Assembly: GCA_964502775.1 (NCBI GenBank)
Contig: CAZCYE010000003.1
Location: 1 to 43,178 of the forward strand
Reading direction: 5' to 3'
Length of the DNA stretch: 43,178 nucleotides
Source: an uncultured Bifidobacteriaceae bacterium
GTDB lineage: Bacteria; Actinomycetota; Acidimicrobiia; IMCC26256; PALSA-555
Below the pieces are notes generated by a model. The model made no database searches. It was not told where the DNA came from and saw nothing but the letters and a program-made list of their open reading frames with translations. A program made the translations under genes and the position numbers. Below are positions 4,604 through 31,513 of the stretch, in pieces (positions within the stretch are counted from its first letter, which is position 1; each line of letters opens with the position of its first letter).

Positions 4604-6643
4604 ATGACGGCCGAGGCCGGGACCGGCCGGGCGAGGCTGCTGCACGGCTACCTGACAGCGGTCATCGTCGTCGGCTTGGCCGACATCGCGGTCGCGGTGA
4701 GGTTCGAGGGTCCGGTCGTCCCTGACAGCAACGTCGGCCGCTACGCGGTCTTCGCGGCCATCATCGTGATCGGCGAGCTGTTCCCGGTGACCTTCAAGTT
4801 CCGCAACGAGCACCACGACGTCACCACGTCCACATCGTTCGCGTTCGCGGTGCTCCTGATGTTCGGCCTTGCCCCCACGTTGCTGGCGCAGTCGATCGCC
4901 TCGATCGCCTCTGACGTGCGCCAACGCAAGACATGGTGGCGGGCGTTGTTCAACGTGTCCCAGTACGCCTTGGCCTGGACGGCATGCTGGGCAGTGCTGC
5001 GAGTGAGCGGGGTCACCCGCTTCGACACGGCCGAGTCGTTCACGAGCGACGGGGCCGTGGGGCTCGTGGCGGCGGCGGTGGTCTTCATGGTCGTGAACTA
5101 CGTCTTCGTTGCGATCGCCGTTGCCCTCGCCCAGCGCTACGTCGTCGCCAGGAATTTCGTCTCGAGTGCTCGGATCGATCTGGCCATCTCGGCGGTGTTG
5201 TTCGCCATGGCGCCGGTCGTGGTGATCATCGGGGAGCAGAATCTCGCGCTCGTCCCCTTGTTGCTCGCGCCGCTCGCCGCCGTCTACCAGAGCGCCCGTA
5301 CCTCGATGGAGAAGCTGCATCAGTCCATGCACGACTCGCTCACCAACCTCCCCAACCGTCTCTACTTCGAGGAGCGCGTGCGGCAGGCGATTGACGAGCG
5401 GCCGGATGCAAAGCTCGATGTGTTGATCGTGAATATCGACAGCTTCTCAGAGATCAACAACACGTTGGGCCATCACGTGGGTGACATTCTCATCGTCCAG
5501 GTCGCCGATCGTCTCCGGAGTGCAGTGCCCGGCGACGCCGTGGTCTCACGCCTGGGCAGCGATGAGTACGCGATCTCGTTGCCGGCCGGCTCCGGTCACG
5601 ACGCGCGTGGCCTTGCCGACCTCATCCAGCGCTCGCTCGAGGCGCCGTTCGTGCTCGACGAGGTCACCTTCGAGGTGGGTGCGAGCATCGGGTCCGCCTC
5701 GTACCCCCTTCACGGGAACGACGTGGACACGTTGATCCGGCGAGCGGATTCGGCCATGTACGAAGCCAAGGAACGCCGGAGCGGCTTCGAGTGGTTCCGC
5801 CCCGAGCGAGACCACCGCGACGCCCGGCGCCTGACCGTGCTCGCCGAGCTGCGCCAAGGCATCGACGAAGGCCAGCTCGTCCTGCACTTCCAGCCCAAGG
5901 CCGAGTTGCCGACCGGGCGTATCCTCGGGGCCGAGGCGCTCGTGCGCTGGAACCATCCCGCGCTCGGTCTCCTCGGCCCGGACTCCTTCGTGCCCCTTGC
6001 CGAGCCCACGGGTCTCATCAACTCCTTGACGTTGCACGTGCTGGAGCAGGCACTGGAACAGTGCCACCGGTGGTCCGACGAGAAGCGGGATCTGCGGGTG
6101 TCGGTGAACGTGTCCGTGCGCAACCTGTACGACGAGCGGTTCGTGTTCGACGTCGACAGGATCCTCGAGCGCACGGGTGTCGATCCCAGTCGCCTCACGC
6201 TCGAGATCACTGAGAGCACGATGATGGCCGATCCGACGCGCCCGATCGCGGCGCTGGCGCAACTCAGTCTCCGAGGAGTCCAGATCGCCGTCGACGACTT
6301 CGGCACCGGATACTCGTCGCTCGCATACCTGCGCCGGCTCCCGGTGACCGAGATCAAGATCGACAAGTCGTTCGTGCTCGGCATGCTGGATTCGCCCGAC
6401 GACGCCACGATCGTCCGCTCGACGATCGATCTCGTACGCAACCTTGGGCTCATCGCGGTGGCCGAAGGCGTGGAGCGCGAGGAGGTCTGGAACGCGCTGA
6501 TCGAGCTGGGCTGTCACCGCGCCCAGGGCCACTACCTCACTCGGCCGCTCGCCGCCGATGCGTTCACGCACTGGCTCGATCGCTACGACCCGCGGGCGCC
6601 CGGTCGGCAGGCGCCCGCGTCGCGGGGGCTGCGCGCGGTCTGA
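4604..6643 (+). CDS. membrane-bound GGDEF(degenerate)-EAL protein, probable c-di-GMP phosphodiesterase
   Basis: The N-terminal ~235 aa are polytopic. The GGDEF domain (DSLTNLPNR, GHHVGD) has GSDEY in place of GGDEF. The EAL domain carries EALVRW, NVS, EITE, DDFGTGYSSL, KIDKSF, AEGVE and AQG. Confidence 0.9.
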   Translation: MTAEAGTGRARLLHGYLTAVIVVGLADIAVAVRFEGPVVPDSNVGRYAVFAAIIVIGELFPVTFKFRNEHHDVTTSTSFAFAVLLMFGLAPTLLAQSIASIASDVRQRKTWWRALFNVSQYALAWTACWAVLRVSGVTRFDTAESFTSDGAVGLVAAAVVFMVVNYVFVAIAVALAQRYVVARNFVSSARIDLAISAVLFAMAPVVVIIGEQNLALVPLLLAPLAAVYQSARTSMEKLHQSMHDSLTNLPNRLYFEERVRQAIDERPDAKLDVLIVNIDSFSEINNTLGHHVGDILIVQVADRLRSAVPGDAVVSRLGSDEYAISLPAGSGHDARGLADLIQRSLEAPFVLDEVTFEVGASIGSASYPLHGNDVDTLIRRADSAMYEAKERRSGFEWFRPERDHRDARRLTVLAELRQGIDEGQLVLHFQPKAELPTGRILGAEALVRWNHPALGLLGPDSFVPLAEPTGLINSLTLHVLEQALEQCHRWSDEKRDLRVSVNVSVRNLYDERFVFDVDRILERTGVDPSRLTLEITESTMMADPTRPIAALAQLSLRGVQIAVDDFGTGYSSLAYLRRLPVTEIKIDKSFVLGMLDSPDDATIVRSTIDLVRNLGLIAVAEGVEREEVWNALIELGCHRAQGHYLTRPLAADAFTHWLDRYDPRAPGRQAPASRGLRAV

Positions 6644-6691
6644 GGTCTCAGCGCCTCTCAACGCGTGGCCGGCCGATGAAGTCAGTCACGG

Positions 6692-7156
6692 TCAATCGGC
6701 TCCGGAGATGTCGACCTGGTAGGCGTCGTAGACGAGCTCGGCGCCTTGGTGGCGGTGCACGAGGATCCTCCGCACGAGATCCAGGCACTGGTCACGCGCG
6801 GTCTCCACCCCCGCCTCGTCGTGGACGGCGCCGAGCGTTGCGGCCAGTGCCTCGCCGGCTGCCGTGAGCGCTTCGTGATCCTCGATGAGCATCTCGATCG
6901 CGTGCTGGAGCCGCGGGGCCTCCTCGGTCACCTGGGCGAACAGGCCACCGGAGCCCTCGGTCTCCGCCACGTGTGCGGAGAGGACCTCGCGAAGCTCCTC
7001 GACCGGCTCGGCGAGGAGCGCCGCCCAGCGCTCGGGAGCGTCGGCCGCGGGTGTGCTCAGCGCGCGCTCCACGTCGAGCACCGCTTCGTACAGGCGCTCG
7101 CGGCGGATCCGCACCGCGTCGAGCGCGTCCCGATTCCGCTCATGGATGTCGCTCAC
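6692..7156 (-). CDS. hypothetical acidic all-helical protein
   Basis: 154-aa ORF with a GTG start and strong third-position G+C, rich in A/E/L and divergent from cydA. No family recognised; a hemerythrin-like helical bundle is only a guess. Confidence 0.55.
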   Translation of the reverse strand: MSDIHERNRDALDAVRIRRERLYEAVLDVERALSTPAADAPERWAALLAEPVEELREVLSAHVAETEGSGGLFAQVTEEAPRLQHAIEMLIEDHEALTAAGEALAATLGAVHDEAGVETARDQCLDLVRRILVHRHQGAELVYDAYQVDISGAD

Positions 7157-25777: not shown

Positions 25778-27097
25778 ATGTTGGGCCTGTCTCGCTTCCG
25801 GGCGTATTGCTTCACCATCGGTACTGCCGCGTGTGCTCTGGGCACGTGCCTCGGAGTGTTCGGGCCCATGCCTGTGCTCGAGCCGATTCTTGTACTAGGC
25901 GTGCTCTTCGCAGTCGCCGAGAACAGCAGCGTCGAGCTACCGAATCGTTCAAGTCTCAGCGCAAGTCTCATGCTGGGCATGGCAGCGGTAGTTGTTTTCA
26001 GCGATGAAGCAGCAGTTCTCGGTCCGCTGTTCGTCGGAATGTTTGGGTGTGCCTATCTACCTCAGATCCGGAATCGGCAGTGGGCCAAGGTCTTCTTCAA
26101 CCTTGGAAACTTCGGCCTCTCAACCGCTGCGGCGGCACTTGTCTTTGCCGGAGTGCCTGTTCAGGTCGACGATTCGATCGGACTGCAGTTGCTCGCATCG
26201 ATTGCGGCAGCGTTAACCTTTGCAACGGTCAACTCTCTCCTTCTCGTTCCTGCCGTTTCGATCCTGACAGGCAAGGGGAAGCGCGCCGTCCTTCAAGAGA
26301 TGTGGGTGAGCGACGCGCAGATTCTGCCCTTCGCGTTCTTGGGAGCCGTACTCGGTCGTCTCTACGTCGACATTGGTGCGCTCATCGTTCCGCTCATCGT
26401 CGTTCCGATCTTCATCGCGCGTCAGGCGTTCGCCTCGTACCTCGAATTGCGTGCCGCGCACGAAGCCACGCTCTCGACGCTCGTGCTCGCACTCGAGTCG
26501 AAGGACCGTTACACGGCCGGGCACGTCGAGCGCGTCGCCAACTTCTCCCACCAAATCGGCCTCGAGTTGGGACTGCGGCCCGGTCGACTCGAGCGGCTCC
26601 GCCAGGCGGCCCTGATGCACGACATCGGCAAGCTCATCGTGCCCAACCAACTGCTCAACAAGCCCGGTCGGCTCACACCGTCGGAGTACGAGCGCATCCG
26701 AGCGCACGAGCACGTCTCGGTGGAGCTGATGCGCCGCATCGACTTCCTCGCTCCGCTTGCGCCGAGCATCGCGGCCGAGCAGGACCATGAGCCGGAGACC
26801 CCGCTCGAGAGTCGGATCATCCACGTCGCCGATGCGTTCGACGCCATGACGTCCACTCGGTCGTACCGTCGGGCGCTCACGCAGGAGGTCGCGATAGCGG
26901 AGCTCCGCGCGAAGTCCGGTACCCAGTTCGACCTCGAGTGTGCCGAGGCGCTGATCCGGGTGATCGAGCGCTCGGGTGTCCGCTATGGCGATGGCCATGA
27001 GGAGTCCCGGGCCGACTTCTCGGTGCCGCCGCCGGTCGTGGGTACCGGCTCGGCCGGATTGGGCGACCTGGAGGGGCAAGACGAGGTCCGGTCGTGA
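25778..27097 (+). CDS. polytopic membrane protein with a C-terminal HD-GYP-family domain lacking the GYP loop
   Basis: Track ORF 25550..27097 is trimmed to ATG 25778, which lies downstream of the small ORF. The HD domain shows TAGHVERVA, LMHDIGKL, RAHEHV and IIHVADAFDAMTSTRSYR. The HHExxDGxGYP segment is replaced by the shorter QDHEPETPLESR. Confidence 0.8.
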   Translation: MLGLSRFRAYCFTIGTAACALGTCLGVFGPMPVLEPILVLGVLFAVAENSSVELPNRSSLSASLMLGMAAVVVFSDEAAVLGPLFVGMFGCAYLPQIRNRQWAKVFFNLGNFGLSTAAAALVFAGVPVQVDDSIGLQLLASIAAALTFATVNSLLLVPAVSILTGKGKRAVLQEMWVSDAQILPFAFLGAVLGRLYVDIGALIVPLIVVPIFIARQAFASYLELRAAHEATLSTLVLALESKDRYTAGHVERVANFSHQIGLELGLRPGRLERLRQAALMHDIGKLIVPNQLLNKPGRLTPSEYERIRAHEHVSVELMRRIDFLAPLAPSIAAEQDHEPETPLESRIIHVADAFDAMTSTRSYRRALTQEVAIAELRAKSGTQFDLECAEALIRVIERSGVRYGDGHEESRADFSVPPPVVGTGSAGLGDLEGQDEVRS

Positions 27098-28269
27098 ACC
27101 GCCCGATGCGCTTCCTGGCAATCTTCGGCGTGGCGCTCGGCGCCGCAGCCGTCGCCGCGCTCGCGGATGCCCCCGCGCATGCGGTCGATCTGGTGGTGTT
27201 GGGCGGCGCGCTCGTGGCATCGGAGCAGCTGGAGCTGCGACCGACCGGCCGAGCGGCGCTCCCGTTGTCCTTCGCTTTGGTGGTGGTGCTGGTGCGGGCG
27301 GCTACTCCCGGCGAGTTCGTCGTGATCGTGGGTGTCGGCCTGGCCGTGGCAATGCTGCTCCGACCAGGCTCGTACAGTGAGCGAGGACTGCTGTGGTGCG
27401 AGCGCCTGGCCGAGGGGCTGGGTGCAGGCGCGGTGTACCGACTGATCGCCGAGTCGTTCGGTAGCCAGCACTCGGAGGCCAGGGTGCTGGCCGCGCTCGC
27501 CGGCGCCGCGGTCACCCAGATCGTGGTGGCGGACCTCGTGGTGCTCGCGCGGGAGCACCGGTTGGCTCCCGTCCGAGCCCGGGGCGCCGATCTCGCCCTG
27601 GTCACGAGCGGCATGTTGATGGCCGTGGGCTACGGGGGCATCGGTGGCAGTGGCCGCCTCGGGCTCTGGGGGCCCTTGCTGTTCTCGATCCCGCTGCTCG
27701 CGGCGTGGTACTCGTTCGAGTTGCTCGAGCGCACGCGCCGAAGCTTCCGCCAGACGGTGCGCGCGTTGGGCGTCGCACCAGAGCTCGGTGGATTGGTGCG
27801 GCCGGGACACGTCGAGCGCGTGGCTCAACTCGCCGTCGACATGGGTCAGCACGTCGGTCTGTCGTTCGTCCAGCTCACCGATCTCGAGACCGCGGCCTGG
27901 TTGCATCACCTCGGTGCGGTGTGCCTTGACGAGCCCGCCGAGGGAGAGCAGCACGACCCGCGGGAGGTCGCCCGAGCGGGAGCATCCATGCTCCGTGCCA
28001 GTGAGGCACTCGCAGCGGCAGGGGAGGTGGTTGCCGCCGAACCGCTGTTGCACCGGATGGCACCCGGGATCGGGCCGTCGTCGTCAGCTGCACTTGCCGG
28101 GCAGATCCTCAAGGTCGCAAGCGCGTACGACGAGCTGACCGAAGGCGATCACGCCCATGCCGCGTGGGCCGTGGAGGCGCTGTACACCGGCCCCGGCTAC
28201 GTCTACGACGGGCGCGTGCTGGGCGCACTCGAGCGCGCACTCACCGCGCGCGGTTGGCTCACTGACTGA
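27094..28269 (+). CDS. paralogous polytopic membrane protein with a degenerate HD-type domain (HD replaced by HH)
   Basis: GTG 27094 overlaps the upstream stop. It has the same N-terminal membrane architecture. PGHVERVAQLAVDMG is retained, but MHDIGK is replaced by LHHLGA and there is no GYP. Confidence 0.7.
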   Translation: MNRPMRFLAIFGVALGAAAVAALADAPAHAVDLVVLGGALVASEQLELRPTGRAALPLSFALVVVLVRAATPGEFVVIVGVGLAVAMLLRPGSYSERGLLWCERLAEGLGAGAVYRLIAESFGSQHSEARVLAALAGAAVTQIVVADLVVLAREHRLAPVRARGADLALVTSGMLMAVGYGGIGGSGRLGLWGPLLFSIPLLAAWYSFELLERTRRSFRQTVRALGVAPELGGLVRPGHVERVAQLAVDMGQHVGLSFVQLTDLETAAWLHHLGAVCLDEPAEGEQHDPREVARAGASMLRASEALAAAGEVVAAEPLLHRMAPGIGPSSSAALAGQILKVASAYDELTEGDHAHAAWAVEALYTGPGYVYDGRVLGALERALTARGWLTD

Positions 28270-28813
28270 CCGCGCGCCGACTCTTGGTGCGCCGGCTCTG
28301 GAAGTACGCGAGCTCGCACACGCCGACGCCCAGGACCAGGTCGCCGAACGAGATCAACATGTCGAAGGGCTCCGGTAGGAGGATCTTGTCGCCGAGGATG
28401 CCGAGCAGGTCCTCCTCGCTCGCCTGACGGTGCTTGACCGTCTGCTCCACCGGCTTGCGGATCCGGTTGCCCTGCGCGTCGTTGCCGATCGGCTTGGTGG
28501 GCATTCCCTGGTTGAGCCCGATCACCAGCGCGTTCATCGCGATTCCGATGGCGATGATCCCGAAGCCTCGTGCGAAGACGTTGGCCAGGCAGAAGGCGAG
28601 GATCAGGGCGTACGACGCCATCAGCGCGGCAAAGCCGATGGTCTCGATCTGATCTTTGGGGATGTCGACGTATTCGAGGGCGATCTGGATGCCAAAGCCG
28701 ACGAGGAGCATCCAAGGTGCCATCACCCGCACGCGAGCCAGTCGGGCGAAGCTTCCACGCGTCAGGATCACGACGAGAGCGGCCGCCGCGATCGTGAAGA
28801 CGAACAGCCACAC
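28259..28813 (-). CDS. DUF5317-family polytopic membrane protein (second copy)
   Basis: GTG start. The N-terminus WLFVFTIAAAALVVILTRGSFARLARVRV parallels that of the 3606..4190 product. Motifs are LNQGMPTKP, ILGDKIL and ISFGDLVLGVG. Its 3' end overlaps the convergent gene by 11 nt. Confidence 0.68.
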   Translation of the reverse strand: MWLFVFTIAAAALVVILTRGSFARLARVRVMAPWMLLVGFGIQIALEYVDIPKDQIETIGFAALMASYALILAFCLANVFARGFGIIAIGIAMNALVIGLNQGMPTKPIGNDAQGNRIRKPVEQTVKHRQASEEDLLGILGDKILLPEPFDMLISFGDLVLGVGVCELAYFQSRRTKSRRAVSQ

Positions 28814-29018
28814 GCCATGACGCTAGCGATCGGCGGCCTCGGCGGGATGGACTGATCGTCCTGCTCGGTCCGCGAGCTCCGGCCGAGACTCTTCGCGGCC
28901 GTCTTCGTGACGTGTTTCGTGGTGGCTATTTCTTCCCGATCCCCGTAGACAGGATCGAACCGCGTGGTTATGTTCGCCGGGCCGGGGATCCCGGGCGGGA
29001 AGTCGGAGAGGCGGGACC

Positions 29019-29735
29019 ATGGGGATGCCGAGCAGTACCCCGAATCATGACCGCGACGAGTTCGCGCTCTTGATTGCTCACTATCGAGACGATGCCTACC
29101 GGTTGGCTCGGCGCCTGGTGAGAAGCGACGCCGAGGCCGAGGATCTCACCCAGACCGCGGTGTTGAACACCTTGCGGCGCGCTGAGCACATTCAGAGCGC
29201 GGGTCACGTGAAGGCGTACCTGCTCACGACCGTTCGCAACCTCTGGCGGAACCACCTGCGCGCCCAGAGTCGCCGCCGGTTCGTGAGTTCGGACACGGTC
29301 GAGCAGTTCCCGTCGGGCGACATTGGACCGGAGGAGCAGGCACTCACTGCCCTCGATGCGGCGCTGGCGGGCATTGCGTTTCGATCTCTCTCGGACACCA
29401 GTCGCGAGGTGATTCGGCTCCGCTACCTCGAGGGCTTGGGGTTCTCGGAGCTTGCTGACCAACTCGGGATCTCGCCGGTCGCGGCCCGTCAGCGGGCCCA
29501 TCGCGCCCGCGAGGAGCTCGTGGGCGCATGCATCGATTTCGCCGCCCGGGAGGGAAGCGGTGCGTGTGCGTGGGTGCGCGAGCGCTTCGGGCGGTACTTC
29601 CGTGGCCGGCTGACCCAGCCGACTCGAGCCCGCGTCGAGGGGCACTTGACGCGCTGTGCAGAGTGTCGCAACGGATACGACGACCTTGTGGATCTCTACG
29701 GCCGCCGCTTCTCGCGACTCAAGGGTGAAGCGTGA
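29019..29735 (+). CDS. ECF sigma-70 factor with a C-terminally fused zinc-binding anti-sigma (ZAS, HxxxCxxC) segment
   Basis: Region 2 is DLTQTAVLNTLR..VKAYLLTTVRNLWRNHLR. Region 4 is REVIRLRYLEGLGFSELADQLGISPVAARQRAHRAREEL. The same frame then reads GACAWVRERF...VEGHLTRCAECRNGY. Confidence 0.85.
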   Translation: MGMPSSTPNHDRDEFALLIAHYRDDAYRLARRLVRSDAEAEDLTQTAVLNTLRRAEHIQSAGHVKAYLLTTVRNLWRNHLRAQSRRRFVSSDTVEQFPSGDIGPEEQALTALDAALAGIAFRSLSDTSREVIRLRYLEGLGFSELADQLGISPVAARQRAHRAREELVGACIDFAAREGSGACAWVRERFGRYFRGRLTQPTRARVEGHLTRCAECRNGYDDLVDLYGRRFSRLKGEA

Positions 29736-31279
29736 AGGATTGCACGCTCCCAGTTGGAGTCATTTCGGTGATGCCGACTCGGGCAGAGCCCCGCAAGCTC
29801 CGGATCACTTCACTGGTCCTGGCTGCCTTCCTGATCTTGGCCCCGGTGCTCATGGCACTCGCTGGAACGCCAGTGGAGCTCAATTGGACGGCAGGAGTCC
29901 TTCTGTTTCTCTCTTTCGTCGCTGCCCAGAAGGACGCCGTCTTCAGCGACGAGACAGCTATTAGCGAGAGCATCCTTGTTGCACACGCGGCCGTTGGCGT
30001 TGCGGTGGGAACTGGTCAGTTGCTTATCGCGTTCTCATGTGGATTGCTCGGCGGTGTGCACTTGTCACATATCCGCGAACGGTCCCTGACGAAGATCGTG
30101 ATCAATGCTGGTGCGATCGGCCTATCTGCATTGGCGGCTGGAGCGATCGCTTACGGATTGGGAGGTGCTAGTCCAAATAGCCTCCGTATGCTCTACTCGG
30201 GTGCTGTAGCGACATGTGTGTTCTGGGTTCTCAACAATTCGATTATTGGTTTCGCCATCTCTGCTGCGCAAGGTAGGGGTGCCCCGAGAACAATCGCAGG
30301 GCTCATCAGGTCAGAAGCAGAGATGCTCGTGTTCGCGTTCCTGGGCTTCCTGACCGGATACCTGTTCGTCGAGGTGGGGACCTGGGCCGGGACCATCGGT
30401 CTGGTCGCCCTCCTCGTGCTGGTCGATGTCGCGGTCATCCGTCGACCGCCTCACATTCCGAAGCGACGGTTCTTCGCGAGTGTGGCGCAGGTCGCGCTGG
30501 CGGGCGTGGTGGTCGTCGCTGCCATCGTGAGTGCGGTGGTCGAGACGTTCCCCGATCGGTGGGGCTTCGTGGCCTTGCTCGGTGCCATGGCGACCGCCGC
30601 GGTGGTGATGTCCCGCCTGCCGGTGGTGCCCGGCGCGCTGCCTTCGACGCTCGCGATCGTGTTGGCCGGTGCCGTGTTCGGCGCCGAAGCGCCGATCGCT
30701 GCTCCACTCACCGCTGGCGTGACGATGGGAATCGTCGCGTGTGTGCTCGGCCGGCGGCGGTCGATACTCGCCGCGAGCTCCGAGTTGGCCGCTGCCGGCT
30801 GCGGCGGGCTCGCTGCTGGGATCGTGTTCCTGGAGCTTCCGCTGCGGGAGACGAGTTCCCTCCCCACGTTCATTGGCGTCGTGCTCGCAGCGGGCGTGGC
30901 AGTCGTCGGCGCGCGCCACCTCTTCCTCGGCGCGATGTTGACGGCTCGTCTCGGGAGGGAGGCACGTCGCGTCGCACTCGAGTTGAGCGCCGCGGACATC
31001 CCGAGCATCGCGGTGACGGCCGTGGGTGGAGTCCTCGCCTGGTGGGCGGTTCGCGATGGCATCGAGGGGTCGCTCCTGGTGGTGCTCGCCGTCGCTGCGG
31101 TCGCGTTCGGGGTCTACCGACTCGGTCGTACCCGTTGGGACCCACGAACGGGCATCCTGATCGAGGACGACCCCGTGGATCCCGAAGAGCTGTTGACGGC
31201 ACTGCGGAGCACGGTGCTGGATTGTCGTCCGGTTCGAGTGCGTGAGCCGACGCTGGAGTTGCCGACTCGTACACAGTGA
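29732..31279 (+). CDS. large polytopic membrane protein with two copies of the shared sensor-like membrane module and no recognisable soluble output domain
   Basis: GTG 29732 overlaps the sigma stop (GTGA). Alternative starts are GTG 29768 and ATG 29771, after GGAG. There are 12 or more hydrophobic helices, and module signatures occur near AAQKDAVFSDETAISESIL and FLELPLRETSSLPTFIGVVL. Confidence 0.7.
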   Translation: MKDCTLPVGVISVMPTRAEPRKLRITSLVLAAFLILAPVLMALAGTPVELNWTAGVLLFLSFVAAQKDAVFSDETAISESILVAHAAVGVAVGTGQLLIAFSCGLLGGVHLSHIRERSLTKIVINAGAIGLSALAAGAIAYGLGGASPNSLRMLYSGAVATCVFWVLNNSIIGFAISAAQGRGAPRTIAGLIRSEAEMLVFAFLGFLTGYLFVEVGTWAGTIGLVALLVLVDVAVIRRPPHIPKRRFFASVAQVALAGVVVVAAIVSAVVETFPDRWGFVALLGAMATAAVVMSRLPVVPGALPSTLAIVLAGAVFGAEAPIAAPLTAGVTMGIVACVLGRRRSILAASSELAAAGCGGLAAGIVFLELPLRETSSLPTFIGVVLAAGVAVVGARHLFLGAMLTARLGREARRVALELSAADIPSIAVTAVGGVLAWWAVRDGIEGSLLVVLAVAAVAFGVYRLGRTRWDPRTGILIEDDPVDPEELLTALRSTVLDCRPVRVREPTLELPTRTQ

Positions 31280-31294
31280 GTACGCTCGGCGGCC

Positions 31295-31513
31295 GTGTTC
31301 GAGCTCCGTGCGATGGTGACGGCGAGCGTGCGCGAGATCATCGTCGATGAGGGTCAACTCGTCGCCGAAGGTGACGAGATCGCGATCCTGGAGGCGGCGA
31401 CCGGCGAGGTCGTGGTCGTCACCGAGATCCCCGGCGTCGTCCGAGAGCTGCATGTCGAACCGGGTGACATGGTCGATCCGGGCACCCTGATTGCCCTGAT
31501 CGACGAGGCGTGA
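31295..31513 (+). CDS. small biotinyl/lipoyl-domain (BCCP-like) protein lacking the modifiable lysine
   Basis: The 72-aa product is ASVREIIVDEGQLVAEGDEIAILEAATGEVVVVTEIPGVVRELHVEPGDMVDPGTLIALI. This follows the biotinyl-domain pattern, but EAMKME is replaced by EAATGE. Confidence 0.7.
   Translation: MFELRAMVTASVREIIVDEGQLVAEGDEIAILEAATGEVVVVTEIPGVVRELHVEPGDMVDPGTLIALIDEA

Follow-up and report, generated by a model that had tools for sequence, protein, structure and literature searches.

Two overlapping genes in an Acidimicrobiia genome

The window analysed here is a stretch of high-GC DNA (G+C 65-73%) of 43,178 nucleotides, contig CAZCYE010000003.1 of assembly GCA_964502775.1, which belongs to an Acidimicrobiia metagenome-assembled genome (MAG) of 1.68 Mb that is approximately 92% complete. 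Two adjoining forward-strand genes are the subject of this work. The first (29019..29735) encodes a soluble extracytoplasmic function (ECF) sigma factor fused to a three-helix zinc-associated anti-sigma (ZAS) domain, 238 aa in total, and the second (29732..31279, 515 aa) encodes a membrane protein with 16 transmembrane (TM) helices, tandem MASE9-like modules and no output domain. In line with the translational coupling that a first-pass annotation of this DNA had reported, the open reading frame (ORF) of the membrane protein begins with a GTG codon (29732) that overlaps the TGA stop codon of the sigma-ZAS gene as GTGA. The membrane gene also lies, as that annotation had pointed out, where an anti-sigma factor is expected, in the +1 position behind an ECF sigma gene. 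Note that the public gene call places the start at an ATG (29771), giving a protein of 502 aa; with either start the gap between the two genes is of 35 nt or less. The first start codon of the membrane gene overlaps the sigma stop codon by 4 nt in at least 10 related loci, and since these overlaps recur we accepted the GTG as the likely, coupled start.

A HMMER search of 1.84 billion cluster representatives retrieved 90 relatives of the membrane protein, and its AlphaFold2 (AF2) model, built from a 66-sequence alignment, has a mean predicted local distance difference test score (pLDDT) of 84 and a predicted template modelling score (pTM) of 0.74. Therefore, the protein is real, folded and conserved, and a pseudogene or a chance ORF was rejected in view of this family conservation and of the confidence of the model.

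The sigma factor is fused to a complete ZAS and has no membrane anchor

In the sigma-ZAS protein, Pfam recognised Sigma70_r2 and Sigma70_r4/Sigma70_r4_2 (regions sigma2 and sigma4) and, in frame after this core, zf-HC2 at residues 183-217. The putative zinc ligands C183, H209, C213 and C216 (C-x25-H-x3-C-x2-C) are invariant in 29 sigma-ZAS orthologues. AF2 predicted three helices after sigma4 (pLDDT approximately 90), after which the chain ends; in all 29 orthologues the end comes approximately 20-22 residues past the CxxC, and no hydrophobic or TM segment was found in the protein. The pTM of this model is 0.49, so the arrangement of its domains is unreliable, and a Foldseek search with it returned ECF sigma chains only, which is uninformative on the packing of the ZAS. 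The nearest match to the sigma-ZAS outside the order to which the window belongs is a 498-aa single-chain protein from another family (genome G195, L053:1815-3311, minus strand), in which sigma factor, ZAS, one TM helix and a Pro/Thr-rich region follow each other in an ECF52/53-like architecture.

Upstream of the sigma-ZAS gene lies a sigma70-type promoter-like site, TAGACA-17-TATGTT (28946..28974, forward strand), the only match of this type between 28700 and 31700, which is conserved in most of 15 aligned related loci. As a consensus match, it would fit constitutive transcription combined with post-translational control. Another conserved element, GAC...N~19...GTGAC, lies further upstream (approximately 28879-28908). 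In some loci it is palindromic, and it could act as an operator or as the terminator for the gene upstream.

The membrane protein has 16 TM helices and no output domain

Besides its 16 TM helices, the AF2 model of the membrane protein shows two short helices in the cytoplasm and one at the C-terminus (residues 484-497). Both termini are cytoplasmic (N-in/C-in): with the loops assigned alternately, 23 lysines and arginines are inside versus 1 outside. The outside loops are all of 8 residues or less, only 20 residues precede TM1, and the last TM helix is followed by a cytoplasmic tail of 49 residues. Neither Pfam nor NCBIfam detected any domain in the whole protein, and this includes zf-HC2 and RskA-type matches, so that no anti-sigma domain was found in it. 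Likewise, no HD-GYP, GGDEF, EAL or other output domain follows the MASE9 modules, just the tail. These results agree with the first-pass description of a polytopic, output-less protein without a ZAS or soluble domain: the protein has no enzymatic, DNA-binding or other output domain.

When the full model was compared with the PDB using Foldseek, no significant full-length match was obtained. Locally, it resembled RibU, the riboflavin S component of the energy-coupling factor transporters, with a target-normalised TM-score of 0.58-0.60 over 164-182 columns; the probability was 0.85-0.96 but the E-value was above 1, which makes the resemblance sub-threshold. This hints at a helical-bundle fold of a small-molecule-binding type that may be shared by MASE9.

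The N-terminal half is a divergent MASE9 domain

The first module of the membrane protein (copy 1, residues ~20-243, 29789..30460, forward strand) was delimited with hhalign and with a hidden Markov model (HMM) built from HD-GYP orthologues only. It has eight helices, including two short ones that AF2 places at residues 52-66 and 80-94 and that have equivalents in the second module. Its closest relative is encoded in the same window, by the MASE9-HD-GYP-family gene at 25778..27097 (forward strand; Pfam HD_5 and HD, MASE9 at 26 bits). The first-pass annotation had proposed that the N-domain of this protein is comparable to the membrane module, and the relationship is indeed strong. BLASTP aligned it with the N-terminal half of the membrane protein with an E-value of 1.9e-15 (8.4e-13 in a genome search), hhalign aligned it with copy 1 over 199 columns (99.8%, E 1.4e-29), and the HD-GYP-only HMM matched residues 20-220 with an independent E-value (iE) of 1.9e-22. 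The two share the motifs PH-R-R-W-K--N, (Y/W)--VN and E/D---PFA--G. A more distant relative is the Pfam-MASE9 N-domain of a GGDEF-EAL protein (4604..6643), which scores 25.2-25.6 bits and hence above the gathering score of the Pfam MASE9 model (PF20972), 24.3 bits. In total, the window carries three MASE9-family genes with four MASE9 modules.

The PF20972 model itself matched neither the whole membrane protein nor either of its halves, even at E-values up to 10. Among the 66 family members it matched 10 at E ≤1, three of which are HD proteins, and the best E-value was 2.9e-7. Since the Pfam model does not match the membrane protein, we assign the module to a divergent MASE9 subfamily, and by sequence copy 1 is clearly homologous to MASE9.

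The known MASE9 domain, as defined by Galperin and Chou, is an 8-TM sensor in which two helices are too short to span the membrane, with short periplasmic loops and intramembrane polar residues (bioRxiv 10.1101/2021.11.05.467447). The modules described here resemble it in having eight helices, two of them short, very short outside loops and polar residues that are conserved within the membrane or close to it, in addition to the clear profile homology and the motifs shared with the MASE9-HD-GYP protein of the window. The membrane protein also differs from the known domain. First, MASE9 is so far known only as fused to HD-GYP or GGDEF-EAL outputs (bioRxiv 10.1101/2021.11.05.467447), whereas the membrane protein has two tandem copies and neither an HD-GYP nor a GGDEF/EAL output. 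Second, it lies below the Pfam threshold and carries a motif set of its own; the family motifs of copy 1 are AEHRD-LFGDET, C103, W-H-R-R, VNAS, FW-VNN and RSET-LPFA-G, of which AEHRD-LFGDET, C103 and RSET are distinctive, and Cys103 is invariant in the family alignment. Third, it is linked to a sigma factor and not to cyclic di-GMP (c-di-GMP) enzymes.

The C-terminal half is a second, degenerate copy

Profile comparisons and the AF2 helices located a second MASE9-like module (copy 2, residues ~244-470, 30461..31141, forward strand). The first-pass annotation had claimed an internal duplication of the sensor module, and profile comparison upheld it. When profiles of the N- and C-terminal halves from 17 full-length relatives were compared, they aligned with E-values of 5e-9 to 1.5e-8 and scores of 60-63, collinearly over 202-205 columns. 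Controls with one partner reversed scored 12-16, and 30 block shuffles of the C-terminal half gave a mean of 23.5 (sd 4.8, maximum 34.9). The helix-length pattern in the AF2 model is also repeated between the halves.

The same conclusion was reached from outside the membrane protein. The HD-GYP N-domain aligned with copy 2 over 169 columns (hhalign 96.2%, E 2.2e-9), the HD-GYP-only HMM matched copy 2 at residues 253-440 (iE 8.1e-5) as well as the second half of at least 10 other long-class relatives, and a profile of the N-domains from a third, divergent group of partners aligned with the C-terminal half at 95.8% (E 7e-9). Conversely, an HMM of the C-terminal half matched HD-GYP MASE9 domains in other genomes with iE values down to 2e-19, and BLASTP aligned this half with the HD-GYP N-domain (E 0.014) in the register of the profile alignments.

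Could hydrophobic composition and a similar spacing of the helices have produced the repeat as an artefact, the C-terminal half being an unrelated TM region? The direct pairwise signal between the halves is weak (BLASTP E 5, Smith-Waterman z 3.1), the Pfam model recognises neither half, and almost all the copy-1 motifs are lost from the C-terminal half. We nevertheless regard this explanation as highly improbable. The profile scores are approximately 8 sd above the block-shuffled controls, with the reversed controls at background, and DUF5317, an unrelated membrane family encoded in the same window, scored just 12-16 against every module. Moreover, the HD-GYP and third-group profiles independently found the C-terminal half in the same register over approximately 170-207 columns, a register that BLASTP also gave independently, and the composition correction of HMMER was already applied when the iE values of down to 2e-19 were obtained. 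The possibility that the C-terminal half is the remnant of an HD-GYP enzyme was rejected, as this half is transmembrane and not an HD fold.

Taken together, the protein very probably consists of two tandem MASE9 domains, the first well conserved and the second degenerate, arranged as 16 TM helices in an N-in/C-in topology and followed by a cytoplasmic tail without an output domain. One further protein from the representative search, P0002 (823 aa), contains three near-identical tandem MASE9-like modules, each of approximately 260 aa, and therefore tandem multiplication is recurrent in the family.

The duplication does not, however, run through the two signatures that the first-pass annotation had cited for it. 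Motif 1 (residues 64-88, 29921..29995, forward strand) comprises, in copy 1, the FSDET loop flanked by the last part of short helix 2 and by short helix 3; it aligns with VAENSSVELPNRSSLSASLMLGMAAV of the HD-GYP protein and has an inside or re-entrant position. The second cited motif, FLELPLRETSSLPTFIGVVLAAG (residues 366-388, 30827..30895, forward strand), is the outside loop that joins helices 13 and 14, and its partner in the alignments is the loop between TM5 and TM6, both in copy 1 (residues 142-164) and in the HD-GYP domain. The second motif is not the equivalent of the first, and the two are also on opposite membrane faces. In the registers given by hhalign, the segment of copy 2 that truly corresponds to motif 1 is MSRLPVVPGALPSTLAIVLAGAV (residues 293-315, 30608..30676, forward strand).

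The proposal that the 27094 product, too, has an N-domain comparable to the modules was not confirmed. This gene (27094..28269, forward strand) encodes a degenerate HD protein whose membrane N-domain is not detectably MASE9: against all the module profiles the hhalign probability was below 1%, with scores of approximately 18, the level of the DUF5317 control. We also observed that the weak alignments of this N-domain (27094-27738) to the modules are all in register, and it may be an extremely diverged MASE9 copy; the C-terminal domain of the same product is a paralogue of that of the HD-GYP protein.

The C-terminal helix is conserved in the two main classes of partner

The membrane partners of the sigma-ZAS proteins fall into three classes. 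The long class (~500 aa), which includes the gene in the window, has two MASE9 modules and a tail with the consensus DDELLDVVRSALLDLPASRLP. The short class (~390 aa) has one MASE9 module, then a region that aligns with the latter half of copy 2 (hhalign 60%, E 9e-5), and a tail, DDDLLLAAVTEAxxDGLP, that is related to that of the long class. In the divergent, g8-type class (410-460 aa), MASE9 is followed by an unrelated TM region, and no relation of this C-terminal region to MASE9 was detectable.

The conserved part of the tail is a cytoplasmic amphipathic helix, EELLTALRSTVLDCRP (31184..31231, forward strand), found in the family alignment and corresponding to the AF2 helix 484-497. In the alignment S493, A494 and P499 are present at 90% or more. 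Both main partner classes have the tail; in the long class, nothing else in the last 270 residues is as well conserved. The helix is a candidate docking element.

The sigma-ZAS/MASE9 pair persists in a changed gene context

We compared 11 loci from relatives (L002-L012) and 28 from named Acidimicrobiia MAGs (L013-L040). With the exception of L035, a MASE9-like gene directly follows sigma-ZAS in all of those with readable downstream sequence. Of 201 Acidimicrobiia genomes sampled, 11 were from the family of the window, and 10 of these had full-length sigma-ZAS orthologues, which were essentially absent from the approximately 190 others searched; the pair is essentially confined to one Acidimicrobiia family.

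The genes for the HD-GYP protein, the degenerate HD protein, DUF5317 (28259..28813, reverse strand; a membrane protein, Pfam 74 bits), sigma-ZAS and the tandem MASE9 protein are syntenic in most loci. This synteny raises the possibility that the membrane protein is a scaffold, one that hetero-oligomerises with the c-di-GMP enzymes of the window (HD-GYP, 25778; GGDEF-EAL, 4604) and either modulates them or links c-di-GMP turnover to the sigma factor. Three MASE9-family genes in the window would provide the candidates for such complexes, and the shared domain family would permit TM-TM contacts. However, the whole region from a glycosyltransferase gene to the ccm genes, sortase included, is collinear within the family. 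The association with HD-GYP, HD2 and DUF5317 may thus be mere inherited gene order, the synteny reaching unrelated flanking genes as general genome collinearity would. In addition, no c-di-GMP-binding motif was identified. In the divergent group L036-L040, the sigma factors are 39-44% identical and the wider context has changed. Here sortase and ccm genes are on the other side, and the ORFs of up to 7 kb of upstream flank contained no HD-GYP, HD2 or DUF5317 gene, yet the sigma/MASE9-like pairing is kept. It is the sigma/MASE9 adjacency alone that survived this change, and we consider the scaffold explanation improbable.

Several other features of these loci were observed. In L035, an inverted segment (L035:717-4600) puts crotonase-like and biotin carboxyl carrier protein (BCCP)-like genes beside sigma-ZAS; this BCCP-like orthologue keeps the biotinyl motif ESMKMEIPV, and the copy in the window (31295-31513) reads EAATGEVVV. 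In some relatives (L014, L018, L028 and others, approximately 6000-6950) an extra gene with the C-terminus ..EGVAAFAEKRxPxW, which by its sequence looks like an enoyl-CoA hydratase, lies between the DUF5317 and sigma-ZAS genes, and extra genes amounting to 1.5-3 kb also separate the membrane gene from the BCCP-like gene. The window has no extra genes at either place (28813-29019, and from the membrane gene to the BCCP-like gene), which fits its small genome (1.68 Mb, compared to 2.5-4.2 Mb).

A possible split ECF device

Gene order and the conserved C-terminal helix suggest, with a confidence that we put about midway, that the sigma-ZAS and the membrane protein form one signalling unit, in which the latter would be the membrane half of a split anti-sigma system, as the first-pass annotation had proposed. 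This reading is plausible because sigma factor, ZAS and TM helices occur in one chain in the actinobacterial groups ECF48, ECF52 and ECF53, in which the ZAS is followed by 1-2 TM helices and release is thought to be proteolytic (PMC8999054). Placing the split at the boundary between ZAS and membrane part is reasonable, since the ZAS chain ends here without a TM helix while the described fusions and the relative from another family continue into one.

The comparison with these groups (e.g. SCO4117; PMC8999054, PMC5826349) shows both the likeness and its limits. In both cases the ECF core and a zinc-finger anti-sigma motif behind it are part of one chain, the lineage is actinobacterial and the membrane part comes C-terminal to the ZAS. 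Unlike them, the sigma-ZAS described here ends after ZAS helix 3 with no TM helix in the same polypeptide, and its membrane part is a separate gene for a 16-TM MASE9 tandem instead of 1-2 helices and an extracytoplasmic domain. Proteolysis of a single-pass anchor is therefore unlikely to apply, as such, to the pair in the window.

The anti-sigma domains of class I consist of four helices: helices one to three bind sigma4, and the fourth blocks sigma2 (PMC7406223). Like the class I ZAS anti-sigma factors RsrA, ChrR and RsiW (PMC7406223), the sigma-ZAS has the C/H-x25-H-x3-C-x2-C spacing and a predicted three-helix bundle that would be expected to bind sigma4; in contrast to them, its ZAS is fused to its own sigma factor and has no sigma2-binding fourth helix, and the membrane protein has no anti-sigma domain of its own. 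The control of B. subtilis SigY with YxlC and YxlD (cited in PMC7826278) provides a further parallel, as a membrane protein from the same operon is needed besides the carrier of the anti-sigma domain; the proteins are unrelated to the ones studied here and have no MASE-type domain.

If the pair is one signalling unit, it would be equivalent to a sigma-ZAS-TM fusion of the ECF48/52/53 type cut at the junction between ZAS and membrane part, with the MASE9 tandem as its input and tether subunit. The tandem, no part of which is exposed outside, would sense a cue in the membrane or at the cytoplasmic face through acidic and polar residues that are conserved in copy 1. Its cytoplasmic face, its C-terminal helix or both would keep the sigma-ZAS in an inactive state at the membrane, or let it go. 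A redox input could be added by the zinc/thiol site of the ZAS. A more specific version, which we offer tentatively as a possibility, is a split ECF device in which the MASE9 tandem replaces the single-pass anchor and controls the soluble sigma-ZAS in trans, for example with its C-terminal helix docking on sigma2 and so standing in for the fourth anti-sigma helix that the ZAS lacks.

Several observations weigh against the two proteins forming one unit. In L035 the sigma-ZAS is found without an adjoining membrane gene, in connection with a local inversion, and in the loci examined no fusion of sigma-ZAS and MASE9 (Rosetta-stone protein) was seen. The whole region is syntenic in the family, so a conserved neighbourhood among close kin is weak evidence. 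The membrane protein is also far less conserved than the sigma factor (approximately 30-40% identity versus 55-60%), the divergent g8-type partners do not have the C-terminal tail, and the fused ZAS alone might regulate the sigma factor as a redox switch.

In a second explanation, the fused ZAS alone regulates the sigma factor as a self-contained thiol/zinc switch, and the membrane protein has no control over the sigma factor but is co-transcribed cargo, a member of the regulon with, for instance, a small-molecule-binding or transport-related function. ECF operons often include target genes downstream, the ligand set of the ZAS is complete and invariant, as in redox-sensing ZAS proteins, and L035 has a sigma-ZAS without its membrane neighbour. 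The partial resemblance of the AF2 model to RibU points in the same direction, although the Foldseek E-values are not significant. Against a role as cargo, MASE9 is otherwise known only as a signalling input domain (bioRxiv 10.1101/2021.11.05.467447), the 4-nt overlaps persist despite the change of context, as does the near-universal adjacency, and the conserved cytoplasmic tail has no obvious role in transport. On this evidence we judge the cargo explanation to be on the unlikely side.

Significance

The MASE9 domain and the sigma-ZAS fusions of the ECF48/52/53 groups are already known. A full-text search of a limited literature collection found no description of an output-less tandem MASE9 protein, of an anchor-less soluble sigma-ZAS fusion or of an obligate pairing of the two. 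To our knowledge, few bacterial sensors are as poorly understood as the MASE domains, and we know of no ligand or mechanism for MASE9. In the system described here MASE9 is free of an enzyme, duplicated and locked to a sigma factor, which gives a simple genetic read-out, sigma-dependent transcription, for the cue of this domain.

Even if the membrane protein is mere cargo, the result is a clean annotation and a new subfamily of output-less tandem MASE9 proteins, restricted to one Acidimicrobiia family. If sigma-ZAS and the MASE9 tandem do form one signalling unit, this would be the first case in which a MASE domain is coupled to a sigma factor and not to a c-di-GMP enzyme or a kinase, and ECF regulation would gain an architecture absent from the ECF reviews that we consulted, a soluble sigma-ZAS fusion with a separate polytopic sensor. 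The pair also suggests a way in which two-gene systems and single-chain sigma-ZAS-TM fusions are converted into one another.

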